Program-made: the position numbers and the translations under genes
Origin: a virus
Lineage: Duplodnaviria; Heunggongvirae; Uroviricota; Caudoviricetes
Length of the DNA: 7,365 bases
Virus record (IMG/VR): IMGVR_UViG_2734482780_000004
Direction: 5' to 3' (one strand)
Part shown: positions 1 to 7,365 of the stretch, in pieces
Position numbering within the stretch: position 1 is the stretch's first letter
How the letters are laid out: every line of letters begins with the position of its first letter
Notes under the pieces: model-generated
The model's database searches: none
Told to the model about the DNA's origin: nothing
What the model saw: the letters and a program-made list of their open reading frames with translations, nothing else

Positions 1-431
1 ATGGTGCTGTCAATGCTGTCGGCCTTCTTGTCGCCTTTCGCACTGGCATCCACGCCGCGATAACGCTCATAAAGCGACGCGGTCGCCATCGCACACACGG
101 CGCGCTCGTAGTAAAAAACTTTGATGCTTTCACCGTCGATGTCGTCCGCCGGAACGTCCGCCAGACGCGTAAAACCGGCGGCAATTTTCTGTTCGCGGTA
201 CTCGTACAGCTCCGCATTCGTCTCCGCCATGCCTGACTTGATGGCCTCACGCAGACGGGCGGGGGCGACGGTCTGCTCAAGGCGCATACGTTCCCGGACG
301 CGCTTCGGGTCGATATCGGGAAAAAAGAACGTGTTTTTAATCACCGGCTCGTCGCCTGCCGGTTGCGGGATGACCACCGTACCCTCACCGGACACGGGAG
401 CCTCCTTTCGCGGAATAATCAGCGTCATCAT
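1..431 (-). CDS. L: Head completion/stabilisation protein gpL, 5' part only (about 143 codons); 3' end lies beyond the window start
   Basis: Hand translation of the minus strand from ATG at 431..429 gives MMTLIIPRKEAPVSGEGTVVIPQPAGDEPVIKNTFFFPDIDPKRVRERMRL, matching the P2 gpL N-terminus as I recall it. GAGG Shine-Dalgarno lies about 4 nt upstream. The frame was translated by hand down to about position 279; no complete minus-strand ORF is listed here in the track, consistent with the frame running off the edge. Position directly downstream of M matches P2 order O-N-M-L. Confidence 0.75.
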   Translation of the reverse strand, partial: MMTLIIPRKEAPVSGEGTVVIPQPAGDEPVIKNTFFFPDIDPKRVRERMRLEQTVAPARLREAIKSGMAETNAELYEYREQKIAAGFTRLADVPADDIDGESIKVFYYERAVCAMATASLYERYRGVDASAKGDKKADSIDST

Positions 432-449
432 GACTACCTCTGAAAAGTC

Positions 450-508
450 GGGCGGTGGACGCCGGTACAGTGTCAGGTGATTCACCCTCACTGACCGGCG
501 TGCCGCCC
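450..508 (-). promoter_or_regulatory. Long GC-rich imperfect inverted repeat (nested stem-loop) in the M-L intergenic spacer
   Basis: Left arm 450-472 (gggcggtggacgccggtacagtg) pairs with right arm 489-508 (cactgaccggcgtgccgccc), with two small bulges. The central loop carries an inner ggtga/tcacc pair. It sits between the M stop (531) and the L start (431) on the transcribed strand. Confidence 0.4.
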
Positions 509-530
509 TGGCGCGGGGCGCATTCGGTTG

Positions 531-1274
531 TTAACTGGCTTTCTTTTTCGGGCGTCCACGTTTTGCTGGGGTCACGCTCCGGGTCTTACGCGGGGCGCGG
601 GTGACCGCTTTTGGCTGCGGCTCCGGCTTCGGTTTCAGCTCCCGCTCCAGTCGTTCAATCTCTTTTTTGACGCCTGCCTGACAGTCGAGCTGTGTCGCAC
701 GTTGCAGGTGAGCCAGCGCACCGGCGGCATCACCAGCGTCACGCAGAAACAGACCGGTGATTTTGTGCAGCTTTGCGCGCACTTCATCAGGCATGTCAGC
801 CGTGGCGGTCAGTTCGAGGGTGTCCGTCAGCAGGCGGGTATCCACAGACTCACCGGCAGCGTGGGCGCGCATGGCCGCAAGTGCCACCTCCTCGGTGAAC
901 ATGTACGGCGGGGTGCGGCGGTGTTTACCCGGCATGGTCAGACCGTATTTCAGGGCATAACGGGCAATCTCCAGCGCACCGGCAATATCACCGGTATCCA
1001 GACGCCACAGCATGACCGTCATCAGAATGTCATCCTGTGCGCCTTTGCCCTGCTCCAGCACGCCGTTCACCCACGGCAACCAGAACGGCAGCAGTTCGCG
1101 TTTTTTTGCGGCCTTCAGCTCTTTTGAATAAATCGCTTTCAGTGTGCGCTGGTCTGCGGCGAGCTTGACCAGCATCTGCTCATAGACAGTTGCATGTCGC
1201 AGCGGGGCGGCTTCCCGCTGCGCGGTCATCGCTGCCGAGACCCGCATCATGTGGCGCTGTGCGGGACTCGTCAT
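531..1274 (-). CDS. M: Terminase small (endonuclease) subunit gpM, 247 aa
   Basis: Complete ORF in the track (MTSPAQRHMMRVSAAMTAQREAAPLRHATVYEQ ... KRGRPKKKAS), matching P2 gpM as I recall it, including the basic Lys/Arg/Pro-rich C-terminal tail. GGAG Shine-Dalgarno lies inside the 3' end of N. Start is 3 nt downstream of the N stop, typical of a translationally coupled late operon. Confidence 0.9.
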   Translation of the reverse strand: MTSPAQRHMMRVSAAMTAQREAAPLRHATVYEQMLVKLAADQRTLKAIYSKELKAAKKRELLPFWLPWVNGVLEQGKGAQDDILMTVMLWRLDTGDIAGALEIARYALKYGLTMPGKHRRTPPYMFTEEVALAAMRAHAAGESVDTRLLTDTLELTATADMPDEVRAKLHKITGLFLRDAGDAAGALAHLQRATQLDCQAGVKKEIERLERELKPKPEPQPKAVTRAPRKTRSVTPAKRGRPKKKAS

Positions 1275-1277
1275 CGG

Positions 1278-2351
1278 TTACGCTCCAGGCTCTGCGGTCG
1301 CTTTAGCCAGTGTGGAGAAATCACCGACCTTAATTTTTTCCACCAGACAACCGGCGGCGTAGTCTTCCACCACGTAATCAATGTTCATTGACTCGTAGTT
1401 CTCCACGCGGTCGAGTTTCGGGTTTTCCACAATCACGCGGCGATGGCTGTCATCCATGTAGTAGATGGACAGGTTTTCCAGCTTCGTGATGAGCATCGCA
1501 TCCGCCGGGAAGTACGGGACACGTACCGCCGGCAGGTTACCGATGCGTTTCTGGCTGATGATGACGTCAGCGGCCAGCATTTCGCTGTTGTCCTGCTCCT
1601 TGTTGACGATGGGGAAATACTTGTCCGCCAGTAGCTGACGCCCCACAATCACCACAAGGTCAGGGTCTTCCTGATACCACGGCTCAATCAGGTTGTTGGT
1701 CGCATCCATCACCAGTGCATCGAGGCTGGCATAATCACCGCCCTTACCCACGCGGATGACCTCAGAGGTCGTGTGACCTTCCTCGTCAGTAACCTTGCTC
1801 ATCACGCGCGCCGGGGCTTCATTGCGGTATTTCTGCAGCCAGCCGACCGCCACATCCTGCAGCATCGGGTTACTGCTGCGGTCAGAGGTTTCGGCACGCT
1901 TCACGCCGTTAAAACCGGCCATGATGAAATCAAGGGACTGGCGTTTGATAATGGCGTTACGGACACGGAGCTGGAAATCCTGATAACGCGCCCACAGGTC
2001 AAGCGTTTTGTAGCGGATATAAAAATCGAAGTTAATCTGGTCGCATTCGTACTTGTTTGACGCCAGCTTCGAGAAGTCCTTCGGCTGACGCTCGGTGCCA
2101 CCGGCAGTGTCGGTGGTGCTGGCGATGGAGCCGGTGACACCGATACCAATTTTTTCCCCTTTCATTTCGCTGACCGGCACAATGTTGATGCGGGTCAGAA
2201 AGTCAGAGGACTCCTGCATGGTGTTCATCAGGGTCTGGGTGACCGACGGTTCAACGGTGAATTTTTTCGACACATCACCGGCGTCAATGCCGTTCAGTTC
2301 GGCAACACGGGACAGGTAGGCATTAAATTTAAAGCGGGTTTCCTGGCGCAT
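1278..2351 (-). CDS. N: Major capsid protein precursor gpN, 357 aa
   Basis: Complete ORF in the track (MRQETRFKFNAYLSRVAELNGIDAGDV ... STLAKATAEPGA), matching P2 gpN in length and sequence as I recall it. AGGA Shine-Dalgarno lies upstream of ATG at 2351. The 58-nt spacer to the O stop is the same spacing I recall for P2 O-N. Confidence 0.92.
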   Translation of the reverse strand: MRQETRFKFNAYLSRVAELNGIDAGDVSKKFTVEPSVTQTLMNTMQESSDFLTRINIVPVSEMKGEKIGIGVTGSIASTTDTAGGTERQPKDFSKLASNKYECDQINFDFYIRYKTLDLWARYQDFQLRVRNAIIKRQSLDFIMAGFNGVKRAETSDRSSNPMLQDVAVGWLQKYRNEAPARVMSKVTDEEGHTTSEVIRVGKGGDYASLDALVMDATNNLIEPWYQEDPDLVVIVGRQLLADKYFPIVNKEQDNSEMLAADVIISQKRIGNLPAVRVPYFPADAMLITKLENLSIYYMDDSHRRVIVENPKLDRVENYESMNIDYVVEDYAAGCLVEKIKVGDFSTLAKATAEPGA

Positions 2352-2409
2352 AGTTTTTCCTGAAATTAAGGGTTAATCGTGAAGGTTTTCCCGGACTGAC
2401 TGACGCCGG

Positions 2410-2688
2410 TCAGCAGTTCGTCATCAGGGCGTCACCGCCACCACCGGTGGCCTTGCTGCGGCGCTGCTGGGTCAGACTTTCGGTGTGGTCGAGACTGTTT
2501 TTCAGGCGGGTGAATGCCTGGCTGGTTTCATCCGCCCTGTCAGTCACCTCCTGCTTAAGTGCGGAAAAGGCGGTTTCCATCTCAGCGAGGCGCTGCTCAG
2601 TGGCGCTCAGTTTTTCCTGCACATGTTCAGCAACAGCGGTCACCGCTTCATGCACATCATTCAGACGGGCGTCATCGCTGGCCTGTTT
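2410..2688 (-). pseudogene. O: Capsid scaffold gene O, 3' remnant only (last 92 codons plus stop)
   Basis: The C-terminal 92 aa of the 264-aa track ORF 2410..3204 ([92 protein letters not shown]) match the gpO C-terminus as I recall it. Upstream of about 2689 the same frame is unrelated to gpO and is antisense to a terminase-like coding sequence. No gpO N-terminal sequence is present anywhere in the window. Confidence 0.7.
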
Positions 2689-3180
2689 GCCCCCATCAGC
2701 CGTGTCGAAATGAGCCTGGAAGCGCGGCTGACCCAGCTCATCATCAAACCGCAGAAAACCGGCGGTGACTTCAAGGAAATTGACCTGCTGGGACGCCAGA
2801 TTGAACGACTGGCGCGGGTCAACCGCTACAGTCAGACCGGCAACGAGGCAGACCTTAATCCGAACGTCGCTAACCGCAACAAAGGCGGGCGTCGCAAACC
2901 GAAAAAGAATTTTTTCAGTGACGAAGCCATCGAAAAGCTGGAGCAGATTTTCTTTGAGCAGTCTTTCGACTATCAGTTGCACTGGTATCGCGCCGGGCTT
3001 GAGCACCGCATCCGCGATATACTGAAATCCCGCCAGATTGGCGCAACGTTTTATTTTTCCCGCGAGGCGCTGCTGCGCGCCCTGAAAACCGGCCATAACC
3101 AGATTTTTCTGTCGGCCAGTAAAACGCAGGCGTATGTGTTCCGCGAATACATCATCGCCTTTGCCCGTCTGGCTGAATGA
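2689..3180 (+). pseudogene. P: Terminase large (ATPase) subunit gene P, N-proximal fragment of about 160 codons, ended by an out-of-context stop
   Basis: Plus-strand frame reads [44 protein letters not shown] ... [58 protein letters not shown]. It contains a P-loop-like KSRQIGAT motif typical of phage terminase ATPase N-domains. The fragment is far too short for the roughly 590-aa protein I recall. The frame upstream of about 2689 is antisense to the O remnant. Confidence 0.6.
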
Positions 3181-3649
3181 GTCGGCCACGCTGTTCCGCC
3201 GCAAGTATTACGAAAACGGCGCTCATGCCGGATATATCATGTACGTCACCGATGCCGTGCAGGATCGCAACGATATCGAAATGCTTCGCGAAAACATGGT
3301 CAAGTCGAAAGGCCGCAACAACTTTAAAAATCTGTTTCTCTATGCCCCGCAGGGGAAAGCCGACGGCATTAAAATTATCCCGCTCAGTGAAGTGGCAACG
3401 AAGGACGATTTTTTTAATATCAAAAAAGCCAGCGCCGCTGACCTGCTGGACGCGCACCGCATCCCCTTTCAGTTGATGGGCGGCAAGCCGGAGAACGTCG
3501 GGTCGCTGGGTGATATTGAGAAAGTGGCAAAGGTCTTTGTCCGCAATGAGCTTATCCCGCTACAGGACAGAATTCGGGAAATAAACGGCTGGCTCGGTCA
3601 GGAGGTCATCCGCTTTAAAAACTACTCACTGGACACTGACAACGGCTGA
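3181..3649 (+). pseudogene. Q: Portal gene Q, 3' remnant (about 155 codons), out of frame with the P fragment
   Basis: Track ORF 3134..3649 ends ...HRIPFQLMGGKPENVGSLGDIEKVAKVFVRNELIPLQDRIREINGWLGQEVIRFKNYSLDTDNG, which I recognise as a P2-type portal C-terminus. It is followed by a terminator and then cos, as expected for the end of Q. The first roughly 16 codons of the track ORF ([16 protein letters not shown]) are the alternative frame of the P-fragment 3' end, so the real junction is near 3165-3185. It is far shorter than the roughly 344-aa portal I recall. Confidence 0.6.
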
Positions 3650-3654
3650 ACATC

Positions 3655-3676
3655 GCCGCCTGCGGGCGGCTTTTTT
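3655..3676 (+). terminator. Rho-independent terminator downstream of the Q remnant
   Basis: GCCGCC (3655-3660), loop TGCG, GGCGGC (3665-3670), then TTTTTT (3671-3676), starting 6 nt after the stop at 3647-3649. Confidence 0.7.
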
Positions 3677-3817
3677 ACACCCCGTCATCCCCCCTCACAC
3701 GCTCACCACCGCACAAAACACCCCGCAGACACACCAACGCCTCAACGGGCAGACTAAGCGCCTTCACGACGCGCTCAGACGCTGAAAAAATAAAATCAGC
3801 ACCACCGCCAGCGCGCA

Positions 3818-3836
3818 GTGCTTTCCCCGCCTCGCC
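3818..3836. other. cos: cos site: P2 19-nt cohesive-end sequence (cosN)
   Basis: GTGCTTTCCCCGCCTCGCC at 3818-3836 is the exact reverse complement of the P2 cohesive-end sequence GGCGAGGCGGGGAAAGCAC as I recall it. It lies about 170 bp beyond the portal gene stop in a C-rich non-coding stretch, the expected location. Confidence 0.75.
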
Positions 3837-3994
3837 CGCCCGCTTCATAGGTCGGTTTTAATGCAGGTGCATTACCACTTTTGAGGGGCGTCCGTCCTGA
3901 CGGTGCACAGCCAGAACATGCAACTTAGGCACATGCAAAACCACGCACATATTGCATGCACTGCTAAAAATAGGAGTATCGCAGAAAAAAACAC

Positions 3995-4024
3995 AAAAAA
4001 ACCGGCATTCATAGTGCCGGTTTT
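3995..4024. terminator. Bidirectional intrinsic terminator hairpin between cos and the cargo island
   Basis: A-tract 3995-4000, stem ACCGGCA (4001-4007), 7-nt loop TTCATAG, stem TGCCGGT (4015-4021), then T-run through 4024. The A-tract/T-tract symmetry allows termination on either strand. Confidence 0.55.
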
Positions 4025-4159
4025 GGCCAATTTTTAAAGTTGTCACTGGCCGCGCAATGCACCAATCTCACTGTTGACGCACATGTTGACAACAATTAGC
4101 AGAACAATCGTGTCCACACATTTTTACAAACGACACCTAACAGATTGATACAGATCATT

Positions 4160-4354
4160 TTATTTGTTCATTCGAATATAATTCAATAGCATCTTGATGA
4201 CCTGAGCGAGTTCTACGCTAGTTGCCTGCGCAACCAGCTTATCGGTATATATGTCAACTTCGCGTGAACTAAGATCATTGTTTTGTGCCAGAGTGGTAAT
4301 CTGCCTCGTCCAGCGTTTAACCCACTCATTATCAAAAGAAATGGAATTTTGCAT
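4160..4354 (-). CDS. Possible small protein (64 aa), head-to-head with the first cargo gene; coding status uncertain
   Basis: Track ORF MQNSISFDNEWVKRWTRQITTLAQNNDLSSREVDIYTDKLVAQATSVELAQVIKMLLNYIRMNK. Its ATG (4354..4352) shares the palindromic GCATGT with the plus-strand ATG at 4353. There is no convincing Shine-Dalgarno, and the region also carries plus-strand promoter-like hexamers. Confidence 0.25.
   Translation of the reverse strand: MQNSISFDNEWVKRWTRQITTLAQNNDLSSREVDIYTDKLVAQATSVELAQVIKMLLNYIRMNK
4177..4182 (+). promoter_or_regulatory. Candidate -10 element (TATAAT) for the cargo operon
   Basis: Perfect TATAAT at 4177-4182 in an AT-rich stretch about 170 nt upstream of the 4353 start. 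The -35 match is poor (ATCATT at 4154-4159). An alternative is TTTACA (4123-4128), 17-nt spacer, TGATAC. Confidence 0.25.
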
Positions 4355-4790
4355 GTCGAAAAATCTCGATTTATTTAACCAACAAACGGCGGAAATCTTT
4401 GCAGTACTATGGGAAAATTTTCCCGTACCACAGGTGATTAACTACGACAAATTTAACGCCGCGCTACCTGATGACTACTTTGACCAACTTAACTCACCAG
4501 AAATGAAAGCGTTAAATCAGTTGCGTAGTGTGGTTGAAGGTACATTCAATTTTCTCTGTGAAAACGGGTACATTCAGTACAACACAGACCATCAGTCGTA
4601 TTTTTACGATGTTCGACTTACTGAAAAAGCGCTCACAGTTCTTAACAAAAAACCCGAGGTGCTTGGTGGAAATGAAACGATGGGGGATAAAGTGATCAGT
4701 GCGGTGAAAGATGGGACTCCTGGGGTCATTGCCGGTGTGATTACAAATCTGCTGACTCACGGCGTTAATCTGGTTGCGTCAGTGTCATAG
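4353..4790 (+). CDS. Hypothetical protein, 145 aa, with a Gly-rich hydrophobic C-terminal tail
   Basis: ORF MSKNLDLFNQQTAEIFAVLWENFPVPQVINYDKFNAALPDDYFDQ ... AVKDGTPGVIAGVITNLLTHGVNLVASVS, ending at TAG 4788-4790. An alternative ATG at 4341 would add MEFC. The extended track start at 4251 is rejected because its N-terminal 30 codons are Cys/Arg-rich and antisense-like. Shine-Dalgarno is weak (GGAA 4343-4346). The gene is AT-rich, unlike the phage core. Confidence 0.6.
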   Translation: MSKNLDLFNQQTAEIFAVLWENFPVPQVINYDKFNAALPDDYFDQLNSPEMKALNQLRSVVEGTFNFLCENGYIQYNTDHQSYFYDVRLTEKALTVLNKKPEVLGGNETMGDKVISAVKDGTPGVIAGVITNLLTHGVNLVASVS

Positions 4791-4952
4791 CCAACGCCCC
4801 AAAGAGACTCATTGTCCCTCGTCACACTACTTGCTTTTAGTTCTGACGAGATTAAATCCGCTCACAGTGTTTACTGCGGAAAAGTTGCGTTATTATCCAT
4901 ATGATTTAACATCTTGGATTCATGTTAATTCACAGTTTAATAAGGATATGGA

Positions 4953-6044
4953 ATGGGTTACGAAATTGATTTTCTAGCTGTTGGCGAAAAAAAAAGCGGC
5001 GATGCGATCTGCATCAGATGGGGAAACCTACATGGTTCAAGAGATGAACAAAAAGTTGTCGTTATTGATGCAGGATATGCCAGCACCGGAGAACAAGTCA
5101 TTGAGCATATTGAAAAATACTACCGCACAAAAACTATTGACTTGCTTATCTCCACACACCCCGATGGTGACCACGTCGGTGGACTTACATCTGTTCTAGA
5201 AAATGCAGAAGTAAAAGAGTTTTGGATTCATAAGCCTTGGGAACATAATCAAGGTCTCGCAAGTGAGTTTGCAGATGGCAGGATAACTGATGCCAGTATT
5301 GCAAATCGAATGAAAGAAAACTTACAAAAAGCTTATGACGCTGTCAAATTAGCGGAAAAAAAAGGAATTGAAATAAAAGAGCCTTTTCAAGGAATGACCT
5401 GGGATAATGCTACTCTGGTTGTTATCGGGCCAACCCAATCTTACTATGAGACTCTAATACCTGATTTCGCAAGAATGCCCAAAAAAGCTGAGGATACAGC
5501 TGGATTTGAAGTACTAAAAGCAGTCTTTGAGTCTGTAGTTGAAAAAACGAAGAAATTTATTGATTACGTTGCTGAATGGTTTACTGATGAAGGTATTGAT
5601 AATGAAGATACCACCTCGGCACAAAATAACTCAAGTGTCATTTTGAAACTTGAGATTGATGGAAGAACGTTAGTGTTCACTGGCGATGCTGGTATAACAG
5701 CCTTAGATCAAGCCTCCCAATACATTAATAAAGAATCATTAAGATTCATTCAAGTACCTCATCATGGTAGCCGGAGAAATGTAGGCCCTGATGTTCTCGA
5801 TAAACTTGTTGGTAACATTGTAAATGAAGGCGAAAAAAGGGAGATAACCGCATTTGTATCATGTGCCCCAGGTTCAGATAAACATCCCCATCAAGCTGTA
5901 ATTAATGCCTTTACTCGACGAGGAGCGAAAGTTATCGCCACCGAGGGGCTTGGTAAGTACCATTTTTATAATGCTCCTGAAAGGGCAGGATGGAAAACAG
6001 CCACTCCACGATCATACATTAGTAACTATAGAACCGAAGAATAA
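4953..6044 (+). CDS. Metallo-beta-lactamase-fold metal-dependent hydrolase (ComEC-like subfamily by motifs), 363 aa; possible nuclease
   Basis: Strong Shine-Dalgarno AAGGA (4942-4946) 6 nt before ATG 4953. MBL-fold motif series in order: VVVIDAGY, STHPDGDHVGG (HxHxDH position, with Asp replacing the second His), VFTGDAG, VPHHGS. A roughly 140-aa acidic/Lys-rich insertion sits between the N- and C-terminal halves of the fold. Stop is TAA 6042-6044. Confidence 0.85.
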   Translation: MGYEIDFLAVGEKKSGDAICIRWGNLHGSRDEQKVVVIDAGYASTGEQVIEHIEKYYRTKTIDLLISTHPDGDHVGGLTSVLENAEVKEFWIHKPWEHNQGLASEFADGRITDASIANRMKENLQKAYDAVKLAEKKGIEIKEPFQGMTWDNATLVVIGPTQSYYETLIPDFARMPKKAEDTAGFEVLKAVFESVVEKTKKFIDYVAEWFTDEGIDNEDTTSAQNNSSVILKLEIDGRTLVFTGDAGITALDQASQYINKESLRFIQVPHHGSRRNVGPDVLDKLVGNIVNEGEKREITAFVSCAPGSDKHPHQAVINAFTRRGAKVIATEGLGKYHFYNAPERAGWKTATPRSYISNYRTEE

Positions 6045-6049
6045 TTCAA

Positions 6050-6069
6050 AAGCTGCCTTACGGCAGCTT
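6050..6069. terminator. Hairpin between the convergent hydrolase and membrane-protein genes
   Basis: AAGCTGCC (6050-6057), loop TTAC, GGCAGCTT (6062-6069), starting 6 nt after the hydrolase stop and overlapping the last codons of the minus-strand gene. There is no long T-run on either side, so terminator function is inferred. Confidence 0.45.
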
Positions 6070-6690
6070 ATTATTAACAGCATTTACTCTATATATTATG
6101 TATCTTATTTGTTTAATATATGAGACAACAAACAAAATAGCAAAAACCGCCAACGTTATTTTAGATAAGCCATATGTCTCGCCAGTAAACCGTCCTACAA
6201 CGCACAATGTCGCCAAAAGAATAATTGACATTGAAAATATCGTCCTATACATATTCGCAATCTCTTGCAAAGTTTCAATTTTTCCATCCACACCACATGC
6301 TGACACATAATCTTTATAAGGAGCAAACTTAATCAAACGCGATAGTTTTAAAAAAGGTTCCAATACGATAGAACCAATCCGGCCAATGACTAAGCCAACA
6401 AAATAATAGAGGACAACATTTTTTATTAAATCATCGCCAGATAAAACGATATTCGTCATTCTCTCAAGAAGATAAATAAAAAGAGCACCTGGAAAAAGAT
6501 TATTAAATATATTATATGACGATATTTTTTCCCATAAACCATCCATACCAATCACCTTACTACAGTTTAAATCAGAGATCATTTTCATTGAAAAATACAT
6601 ATATAGCAAGAAATCTATAGCGATTCTGACATCCAACCTGAGTCTATCAGTAGTTAATCTCTTCAGAAAAGAGTGCATAACGAAAACCAA
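6058..6690 (-). CDS. Multi-pass membrane protein (about 4 predicted TM helices), 162-210 aa depending on start
   Basis: Track ORF with four hydrophobic segments: LFPGALFIYLL, VVLYYFVGLVIGRIGSIVL, IFSMSIILLATLCVVGRF, ITLAVFAILFVVSYI. The track start at 6690 is TTG; the first ATG is at 6678 with no Shine-Dalgarno. The ATG at 6546 (MDGLWEK) has a good AGGTGAT Shine-Dalgarno (6557-6551). The frame is open across 48 AT-rich codons upstream of 6546, which mildly favours the longer form. Confidence 0.6.
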   Translation of the reverse strand: MVFVMHSFLKRLTTDRLRLDVRIAIDFLLYMYFSMKMISDLNCSKVIGMDGLWEKISSYNIFNNLFPGALFIYLLERMTNIVLSGDDLIKNVVLYYFVGLVIGRIGSIVLEPFLKLSRLIKFAPYKDYVSACGVDGKIETLQEIANMYRTIFSMSIILLATLCVVGRFTGETYGLSKITLAVFAILFVVSYIKQIRYIIYRVNAVNNKLP

Positions 6691-6794
6691 TCACAGGAAA
6701 TCGGCTATGTAAATTTTCGACCGTCGTATATCAATGGTACACCACGCCCCCCACGCTTACATTACTTCTGTGTGATGCCATACTGAGCGAGGTC

Positions 6795-6821
6795 TATATA
6801 AATACTAGTAATTTATCACAA
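6795..6821 (-). promoter_or_regulatory. Candidate sigma70 promoter for the membrane-protein gene
   Basis: On the minus strand, TTGTGA (6821..6816), a 15-nt spacer, then TATATA (6800..6795). The alternative is a 17-nt spacer with TATAGA. It lies about 100 nt upstream of the ORF start. Confidence 0.3.
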
Positions 6822-6840
6822 ACCTGATTTGATCAGCCTC

Positions 6841-6985
6841 GCGATGGCACAAATGCAAGCGGTTTTAACGGACTTCCGTTTCTTTGCTGACGATTTGGTA
6901 TTCTCAGACCGTGTTTTAATGCACCTCTGAGCGCCCTCACGACCGCCGGATCATTCCATTCGATTACCCGTCATCAAATTGATTC
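6841..6985. repeat. Direct repeat copy 1: degenerate, frameshifted duplicate of part of the flanking gene
   Basis: Positions 6859-6985 align with 7191-7320 at about 90% identity by hand alignment (gcggttttaacggacttccgtttctttgctgacgatttgg...). Weaker similarity extends to about 6841 and 7172. In a shifted minus-strand frame copy 1 encodes RVIEWNDPAVVRALRGALKHGLRIPNRQQRNGSPLKPLAFVPSRG, closed immediately upstream by stop codons. Confidence 0.8.
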
Positions 6986-7365
6986 CACTCTGTTATAGTT
7001 GAATATCCCGGCCACTCATCAGCGACCGGATACGTGAATTTTTTCCCGTCATAATTTACGGTTGCCCCACGCGCCAGCGACTCAAGCTCCCATCGCTGAG
7101 GTCTGATACCGTTCTGAGCAAGATCAACGCGAATACGGGTAATTTGCAATCGCTCCGACCTGGTCAGCCTGGCTGATGGCGCTATTTCATGCGGTTTTAA
7201 CGGACTTCCGTTTCTTTGCTGACGATTTGGTGTTCTCAGTCCGCATTTTAATGCACCTCTGAGCGCCCTCACAACCTCCGGGTCACTCCATTCGATAACA
7301 CCGTCATCAACCAGATTAAGCACTGCTGCGGCGTGTTCAGAAGGTGTGGGAGCCGGTAACGAAGT
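6964..7365 (-). CDS. Phage protein of unknown identity, 3' part only (at least 133 codons; N-terminus beyond window end)
   Basis: The minus-strand frame is open from the window end (TSLPAPTPSEHAAAV, then LNLVDDGVIEWSDPEVVRALRGALKCGLRTPNRQQRNGSPLKPHEIAPSA ... TITEWNQFDDG) to stop TAA at 6966..6964. The track start at 7323 is only an internal GTG. Orientation and position fit the distal end of the P2 early/replication operon, but I cannot assign it to gene A or a neighbour from memory. Confidence 0.5.
   Translation of the reverse strand, partial: TSLPAPTPSEHAAAVLNLVDDGVIEWSDPEVVRALRGALKCGLRTPNRQQRNGSPLKPHEIAPSARLTRSERLQITRIRVDLAQNGIRPQRWELESLARGATVNYDGKKFTYPVADEWPGYSTITEWNQFDDG
7172..7320. repeat. 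Direct repeat copy 2: in-frame coding copy inside the flanking gene
   Basis: Partner of the 6841-6985 repeat. It encodes residues NLVDDGVIEWSDPEVVRALRGALKCGLRTPNRQQRNGSPLKPHEIAPSA of the minus-strand gene. Confidence 0.8.

Follow-up and report, generated by a model that had tools for sequence, protein, structure and literature searches.

The question raised by this locus is how a P2-like phage genome comes to have its head-assembly genes O, P and Q squeezed into a fraction of their usual space. A first-pass annotation of the 7,365-nucleotide viral stretch analyzed here (IMG/VR record IMGVR_UViG_2734482780_000004, hereafter the window) had estimated that the three genes need about 3.8 kb and that only about 1.2 kb is present, and measurement bears this out: the O-P-Q interval spans 3835 bp in an intact relative, the prophage of Escherichia coli 5444 (locus L001, positions 5410 to 9244), versus 1240 bp in the window (positions 2410 to 3649). 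The affiliation of the window with the P2-like phages (Peduovirus) is evident from its collinear L-M-N-O genes divergent from P-Q, its high DNA identity and the concordance of its Pfam families. Positions 1 to 3880 are 97 to 98% identical to the left arm of the P2-family phages Wphi, pro483, STYP1 and Yersinia vB_YpM, and 94 to 95% of positions 1 to 4100 aligns at 97 to 98% with Wphi and with P2-family Yersinia and Escherichia phages. The whole window matches P2-like prophages in complete E. coli genomes at about 99%, always in three pieces and with a subject about 2.6 kb longer. In the strain 5444 prophage, L, M, N and O lie on one strand and P and Q on the other, followed by a cargo region and the replication gene A, and the gene order in Wphi is the same. 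The intact relatives in E. coli 5444 (NZ_CP103515) and GCA_035794995.1 and phage Wphi (NC_005056) share with the window the order L-M-N-O/P-Q-cos-cargo-A and are 97 to 99.8% identical to it across all of the DNA retained here. Unlike the window prophage, intact relatives possess full-length O (284 aa), P (590 aa) and Q (344 aa), the O-P spacer and the lysis and tail genes from K to D.

We propose, with a probability of roughly 0.88, that positions 2410 to 3649 are a deletion scar in a decaying cryptic P2-like prophage located at the yegR/yegQ(trhP) attachment site of an E. coli chromosome, and with the same probability that the scar was made by two short-homology deletions, one of 908 bp at TTGC and one of 1687 bp at CTGG. 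A BLAST comparison with the strain 5444 prophage resolves the window into three collinear blocks (1 to 2690, 2687 to 3176 and 3169 to 7365), and the 2595 bp absent from its O-P-Q interval is the sum of these two losses. The first-pass annotation had likewise called two deletions, with junctions near 2689 and near 3165 to 3185; alignment to complete P2-family genomes, which it had recommended together with a search for microhomology, places them at 2687 to 2690 and 3169 to 3172.

What remains of O, P and Q is 97 to 100% identical to the corresponding parts of the full-length genes in intact relatives. The O fragment (O', 2410 to 2690, minus strand) codes for gpO residues 193 to 284 and the stop, with 92 of 92 codons identical, and is thus the run of last 92 codons recognized earlier. 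The P fragment (P', 2691 to 3168, plus strand) codes for residues 54 to 214 of the 590 residues of gpP, all 161 of them identical; it lacks a start codon of its own, includes the Walker-A-like motif SRQIGAT (3028 to 3048, plus strand), which the first reading had taken for the P-loop, and its frame continues past residue 214 as LAE before a stop at 3178 to 3180. The Q fragment (Q', 3173 to 3649, plus strand) codes for portal residues 187 to 344 and the stop (157 of 158 identical) and, as had been noted, lies out of frame with P'. Each fragment matches the expected part of its Pfam family profile, namely, positions 187 to 268 of 268 in Phage_GPO for O', 2 to 56 of 215 in Terminase_6N for P' and 144 to 276 of 321 in Phage_portal for Q'.

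The DNA around the scar is preserved, as had been claimed for cos, the terminator, N and M. The gene for the small terminase subunit M (531 to 1274, minus strand; 247 aa; Pfam Phage_term_smal, E = 3e-48) is intact, its product matching that of an intact relative (L034) at 246 of 247 residues, and so is that for the major capsid protein N (1278 to 2351, minus strand; 357 aa; Phage_cap_P2, E = 6e-151), which is identical at 357 of 357 residues and is found in identical form in intact prophages. Downstream of Q' are an intact intrinsic terminator (3655 to 3676, plus strand), formed by the hairpin GCCGCC-TGCG-GGCGGC (3655 to 3670) and a T run, and an intact P2-type cos site, whose 19-nucleotide cohesive-end sequence GGCGAGGCGGGGAAAGCAC is read on the minus strand at 3818 to 3836. 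The linear phage records of Wphi, HQ103 and P24E6b terminate exactly at window position 3836. A strong minus-strand terminator is present at 4024 to 3998.

The junctions are defined to the base when the window is aligned three ways, against the two parental flanks as found in L003, L005 and L006, its closest intact relatives (99.7 to 99.8% identical). At junction 1 (2687 to 2690), a 4-bp microhomology, TTGC, spans a deletion of 908 bp that takes out O codons 1 to 192 (the protease half), the entire O-P intergenic region and P codons 1 to 53. At junction 2 (3169 to 3172), the 4-bp microhomology CTGG, part of a 7-of-8 match over CTGGYTGA, spans a deletion of 1687 bp that takes out P codons 215 to 590 and Q codons 1 to 185. 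The P' island between them has the same parentage as its flanks (1 mismatch in 490 positions), and the source remnant as a whole differs from intact relatives by only 0.2 to 0.3%.

Published work on gpO describes an N-terminal protease and a C-terminal scaffold, with an N-terminal domain at residues 1 to 141 and a C-terminal domain at residues 195 to 284 (PMC7552001). The surviving O', which ends in the C-terminal Cys, corresponds almost exactly to this scaffolding domain; it has neither a start codon nor a promoter of its own and sits in a 264-aa minus-strand open reading frame (ORF) (2410 to 3204), the first part of which is antisense to P'.

The allele was found in few places. A 430-kb contig of an E. 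coli draft genome (JAASPS010000046.1; GCA_016112795.1) is 100% identical over all 7365 bp of the window, and the Logan assembly of run ERR11812998, from an isolate that may be the same as that of GCA_016112795.1, has the same structure and junctions with 1 mismatch in 6888 bp. Locus L009 carries the same deletion allele by alignment although its gene calls differ. The junction 1 24-mer and the junction 2 25-mer had no exact match in the GTDB species representatives, IMG/VR and the JGI metagenomes, sets that do not include the source draft genome. When 5426 complete E. coli genomes and 50,697 phage records were searched by megablast with positions 2640 to 3230, neither junction was recovered, the best coverage being of the central P' block only (83% of the query), and the same genomes and records held no single-deletion intermediate or second lineage. 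Of the ORFs that span the junctions, those of 264 aa and 171 aa had no exact match on look-up; only a 259-aa version, as called in the Logan contig, is on record. Given the absence of the junctions from the genome, phage and metagenome sets searched, the two-deletion allele is rare and, as judged from these sequences, recent.

The source genome extends the lesion beyond the window. The source locus (L035) contains int, C, cox, B, A, the cargo, cos, the O', P' and Q' fragments, N, M, L and X, followed by a holin gene shortened to 86 aa, an ogr without its 5' end, the attR core AAAAAATAAGCCCGTGTAAGGGAGATT and the host genes yegQ/trhP, parDE, yegP and baeRS. The core adjoins ogr in the source contig and int in relatives. 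A third deletion, at L035 positions 12851 to 12857 and outside the window, joins codon ~73 of the holin gene Y to codon ~7 of ogr across the microhomology TAT and takes out all of the lysis and tail genes, K through D, together with the first ~6 ogr codons, including that for Cys4; the span between the two breakpoints is about 15 kb, as measured in the relative from strain 5444. This junction too is present in both the deposited contig and the Logan assembly. The remnant then measures about 13.7 kb, if its int-attL end, part of which falls beyond the retrieved locus, is taken to match that of the relative L024. To produce virions, a P2-like prophage needs O, P and Q in full together with the late-promoter region between O and P, and also lysis and tail genes from K to D and an intact ogr; here only O 193 to 284, P 54 to 214 and Q 187 to 344 are left, the spacer is wholly within the 908-bp deletion and K to D are gone. 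With essential morphogenetic genes inactivated and with flanking host genes and an att site present, the element is a cryptic, defective prophage, in line with the earlier proposal of a prophage that cannot build or fill heads, to which the loss of the lysis and tail genes can now be added.

The fused ogr frame lacks an ATG start and reads CWVC versus CPLC in intact Ogr, so that the CxxC motif is restored by chance. The ogr-side breakpoint, just before GCCAGCATGCC at ogr codon 6 to 7, recurs within 1 to 2 nucleotides in three different remnants at the yegQ/trhP site (L035, ~12855; L019 and L023, ~9997 to 10000; L037, ~5996 to 6000), with holin Y, portal Q and tail fibre H as the respective left partners. 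Because the L035 junction served as the BLAST query that retrieved L037, the latter is to that extent a biased sample; the coincidence between L035 and L019 is free of this bias. Immediately to the right of this breakpoint is a GCATG..CATGC inverted repeat, and comparison by eye with the P2 att core revealed no convincing similarity. On the strength of these coincidences, the recurrent breakpoint may be a deletion hot spot.

In P2, the portal is built of gpQ and the terminase of gpP and gpM, and the O-P spacer carries the late promoters that drive O-N-M-L and P-Q. Our placement of the promoters follows this published P2 biology because a scan for the late-promoter dyad TGT-N12-ACA is uninformative: the window has 2 matches versus 1.8 expected, both in the cargo, and the motif occurs in the intact O-P spacer only if one mismatch is tolerated. 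The whole of the spacer lies inside the 908-bp deletion, and the earlier suggestion that the divergent O/P promoter region had been lost is thereby upheld. The microhomologies suggest that the O-P-Q losses arose by RecA-independent short-homology events, either replication slippage or template switching, and the 482 to 490 bp of P between the deletions would have survived by position only. With no portal, large terminase or maturation protease left, heads would be neither built nor filled; since the O, P and Q functions and the O-P spacer are gone, no procapsids with a portal and no DNA packaging are to be expected. Without an upstream late promoter, N-M-L-X would probably be silent, and the minus-strand terminator at 4024 to 3998 would block read-through toward them from the cargo. 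After the third deletion, the source prophage still has int, C, cox, B, A, cos, attR and the candidate defense cargo.

Whether the two window deletions arose separately bears on this mechanism. In a single complex event, a nascent strand would have switched template twice on 4 bp, skipping 908 bp, copying about 480 bp of P and then skipping 1687 bp. We hold this as a tentative possibility, for which several observations speak: 4-bp microhomology is present at both junctions, two independent deletions would fall about 480 bp apart in a phage of ~31 kb with a chance of about 3% by our estimate, the single-deletion intermediate is absent from the 5426 complete E. coli genomes and a 111-nucleotide tail-fibre island lies between two deletions in the comparable remnant L037 (strain IAL7250). 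However, once a prophage is defective, further deletions nearby are neutral and accumulate, and intermediates could hide in draft genomes. Sequential neutral decay by two separate window deletions is fully possible.

L037 (NZ_CM130729.1, 3534 to 6208) occupies the chromosomal site of the window prophage and is multiply deleted: it has lost L through R, its W is truncated and the tail-fibre island is followed by a truncated ogr, a pattern of a small island between two deletions like that of O'-P'-Q'. Further multiply deleted P2 remnants, at this and other sites, were found in complete genomes, and such remnants are common. Three remnants (L019, L023 and L038) are minimal, with only (D')-ogr, Q', cos and defense cargo, the last including SIR2 plus an ATPase and an MC4/CTD8-type system; L023 is without any early region. 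L019 and L023 have an identical Q'-ogr junction and different cargo, which suggests cargo swapping inside an already defective element.

On the Q side, junction 2 falls in CCTGG, a Dcm site, and an unrelated deletion in L016, in which a resolvase-like gene is joined to Q', has its Q-side end (~9932) at this CCTGG as well. The TGG of this CCTGG is the codon for Trp186, which is TAG in L015 and TGA in L020, and a frameshift in L017 ends at the same place, Q codon 186. As read from the sequences, the change of TGG to TAG is that expected from deamination of 5-methylcytosine on the other strand. These four loci were drawn via a 136-aa Q ORF call and the sample is biased to the stretch around codon 186; we judged the tendency of Q-side breakpoints to cluster in other remnants to be nonsignificant.

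The DNA beyond cos bears on a different account, in which the losses were favored. The cos-adjacent cargo locus identified with PADLOC (4353 to 6690) comprises a metallo-beta-lactamase-fold protein (4953 to 6044, plus strand), a small protein of 162 to 210 aa with no Pfam match (6058 to 6546/6690, minus strand) and a 145-aa ORF (4353 to 4790, plus strand) that is extra to the pair. PADLOC matches PDC-M48B with an E value of 1.1e-100 and PDC-M48A with one of 1.5e-50, and both components are present and adjacent, as the system definition requires; we therefore regard the cargo as an intact candidate defense system, PDC-M48. Several intact relatives of the window prophage have this cargo, and 990 blocks of our collection have the 162-aa component in identical form, mostly within intact P2-like prophages. 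A defense hotspot of P2 has been described between gpA and gpQ, next to cos (PMC9122126), and the window cargo is located there. Farther along, a direct repeat of 88% identity is seen between positions 6830 to 6977 and 7161 to 7310; of the two copies, the second is part of the 3' end of A, and the first, a relic immediately past the A stop codon, still reads VIEWNDPAVVRALRGALKHGLR.... The pair resembles the trace that a swap of cargo through recombination within the end of A would leave, and the Logan contig breaks at this repeat.

According to this account, shedding the head, lysis and tail genes was favored or tolerated, with the host benefiting from immunity genes and defense cargo at no risk of lysis. 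We think adaptive domestication of this kind unlikely, though worth weighing. The cargo is intact and matches a candidate defense system, and the early genes and attR are intact as well. Gene calls in 261 blocks of the collection list the 136-aa C-terminal ORF of Q as a gene of its own, and in 7 of the 10 places listed for it a deletion runs from inside Q into the tube, sheath, fibre, W or ogr genes and Q'-cos-cargo stays, although this look-up can detect only lesions in roughly Q nucleotides 484 to 625 and, being made through Q', is biased toward cargo-proximal retention. A like pattern has been reported, with defective P2-like prophages keeping conserved defense genes and no consistent pattern in which core genes are lost (Nucleic Acids Res 2026, PMC13586616). 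Against this, a divergence of 0.2 to 0.3% from intact relatives makes the remnant too young to show purifying selection, the useless genes N, M, L and X are also intact, as recent neutral decay predicts, and a defense role for PDC-M48 here is that of a candidate. Recent neutral decay explains the remnant fully; the retained cargo and immunity region are compatible with domestication, as with the selectively retained remnant that the first-pass annotation had offered as its other reading.

A more far-reaching proposal is that the ~13.7-kb remnant is a satellite in the making, which excises, replicates and is packaged by a co-resident or superinfecting P2-like helper. It draws on the intactness of int, cox, A, B, other early genes, cos and attR, on a size near that of P4, on the retention of N, M and L and on the exact agreement of O' with the scaffolding domain at 195 to 284 (PMC7552001). 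The likeness to satellite phage P4 includes genome size (~11.6 kb versus ~13.7 kb), a common cos core and a cos-adjacent defense hotspot (PMC9122126). However, the P4-type genes sid, psu, delta and the alpha primase-helicase are absent from the gene calls and Pfam matches at the source locus, making the remnant a helper-type deletion derivative rather than a relative of P4. Moreover, O' is without a start codon or promoter, the O/P late-promoter region is deleted, ogr is truncated and the coincidence of O' with a domain boundary is a single observation. We consider this origin very unlikely; if it were true, a P2-like helper could package the remnant and spread its defense cargo. A weaker variant attributes the form of P2 remnants to deletion hot spots, with an ogr-side breakpoint that has three partners and a Q-side breakpoint that has two.

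The first-pass annotation, whose description of the scar is correct at every point open to checking, had itself named two ways in which its reading could fail, and neither holds. One was that the junctions are false joins made during assembly. The carriers are indeed draft or short-read assemblies only, but both window junctions and the third one are found in the deposited 430-kb contig and again in the separately made Logan assembly, there is no repeat at the junctions and a 4-bp overlap cannot make an assembler join sequences. Because the same junctions recur in the ERR11812998 assembly, misassembly is unlikely in the extreme, and we treat junctions 1 and 2 as real deletions. The other, a lineage with naturally short O, P and Q genes, is refuted by the full-length genes in relatives 99.7 to 99.8% identical and has next to no probability, the fragments being startless, out of frame and 99 to 100% identical to internal parts of those genes.

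Two short-homology deletions in a decaying prophage thus remain our reading, and O'-P'-Q' is ordinary prophage decay, to the exclusion of a new type of element. A cryptic P2 remnant of E. coli K-12, with ogrK and the gpD fragment yegZ next to yegQ, was reportedly described by Barreiro and Haggard-Ljungquist in 1992. It resembles the present case in its neighborhood (yegQ/trhP, yegP and baeSR) and in its decay to a fragment beside attR; it keeps only D'-ogr, whereas the window prophage still has its early region, cargo, cos and N-M-L-X. The scar is one instance of a phenomenon already known, that of defective P2-like prophages with conserved defense genes; in contrast to those reported previously (PMC13586616), one allele is resolved here down to its exact junctions and microhomologies. 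Taken alone it matters little, and it adds one case to work on how prophages are domesticated and how P2 remnants reuse breakpoints. For annotation, O', P' and Q' should be recorded as three pseudogene fragments rather than as short genes. For the biology of the P2-like prophages, the scar provides a clean, base-resolved case of decay via short-homology deletions in which the cos-adjacent defense cargo and the immunity region survive.
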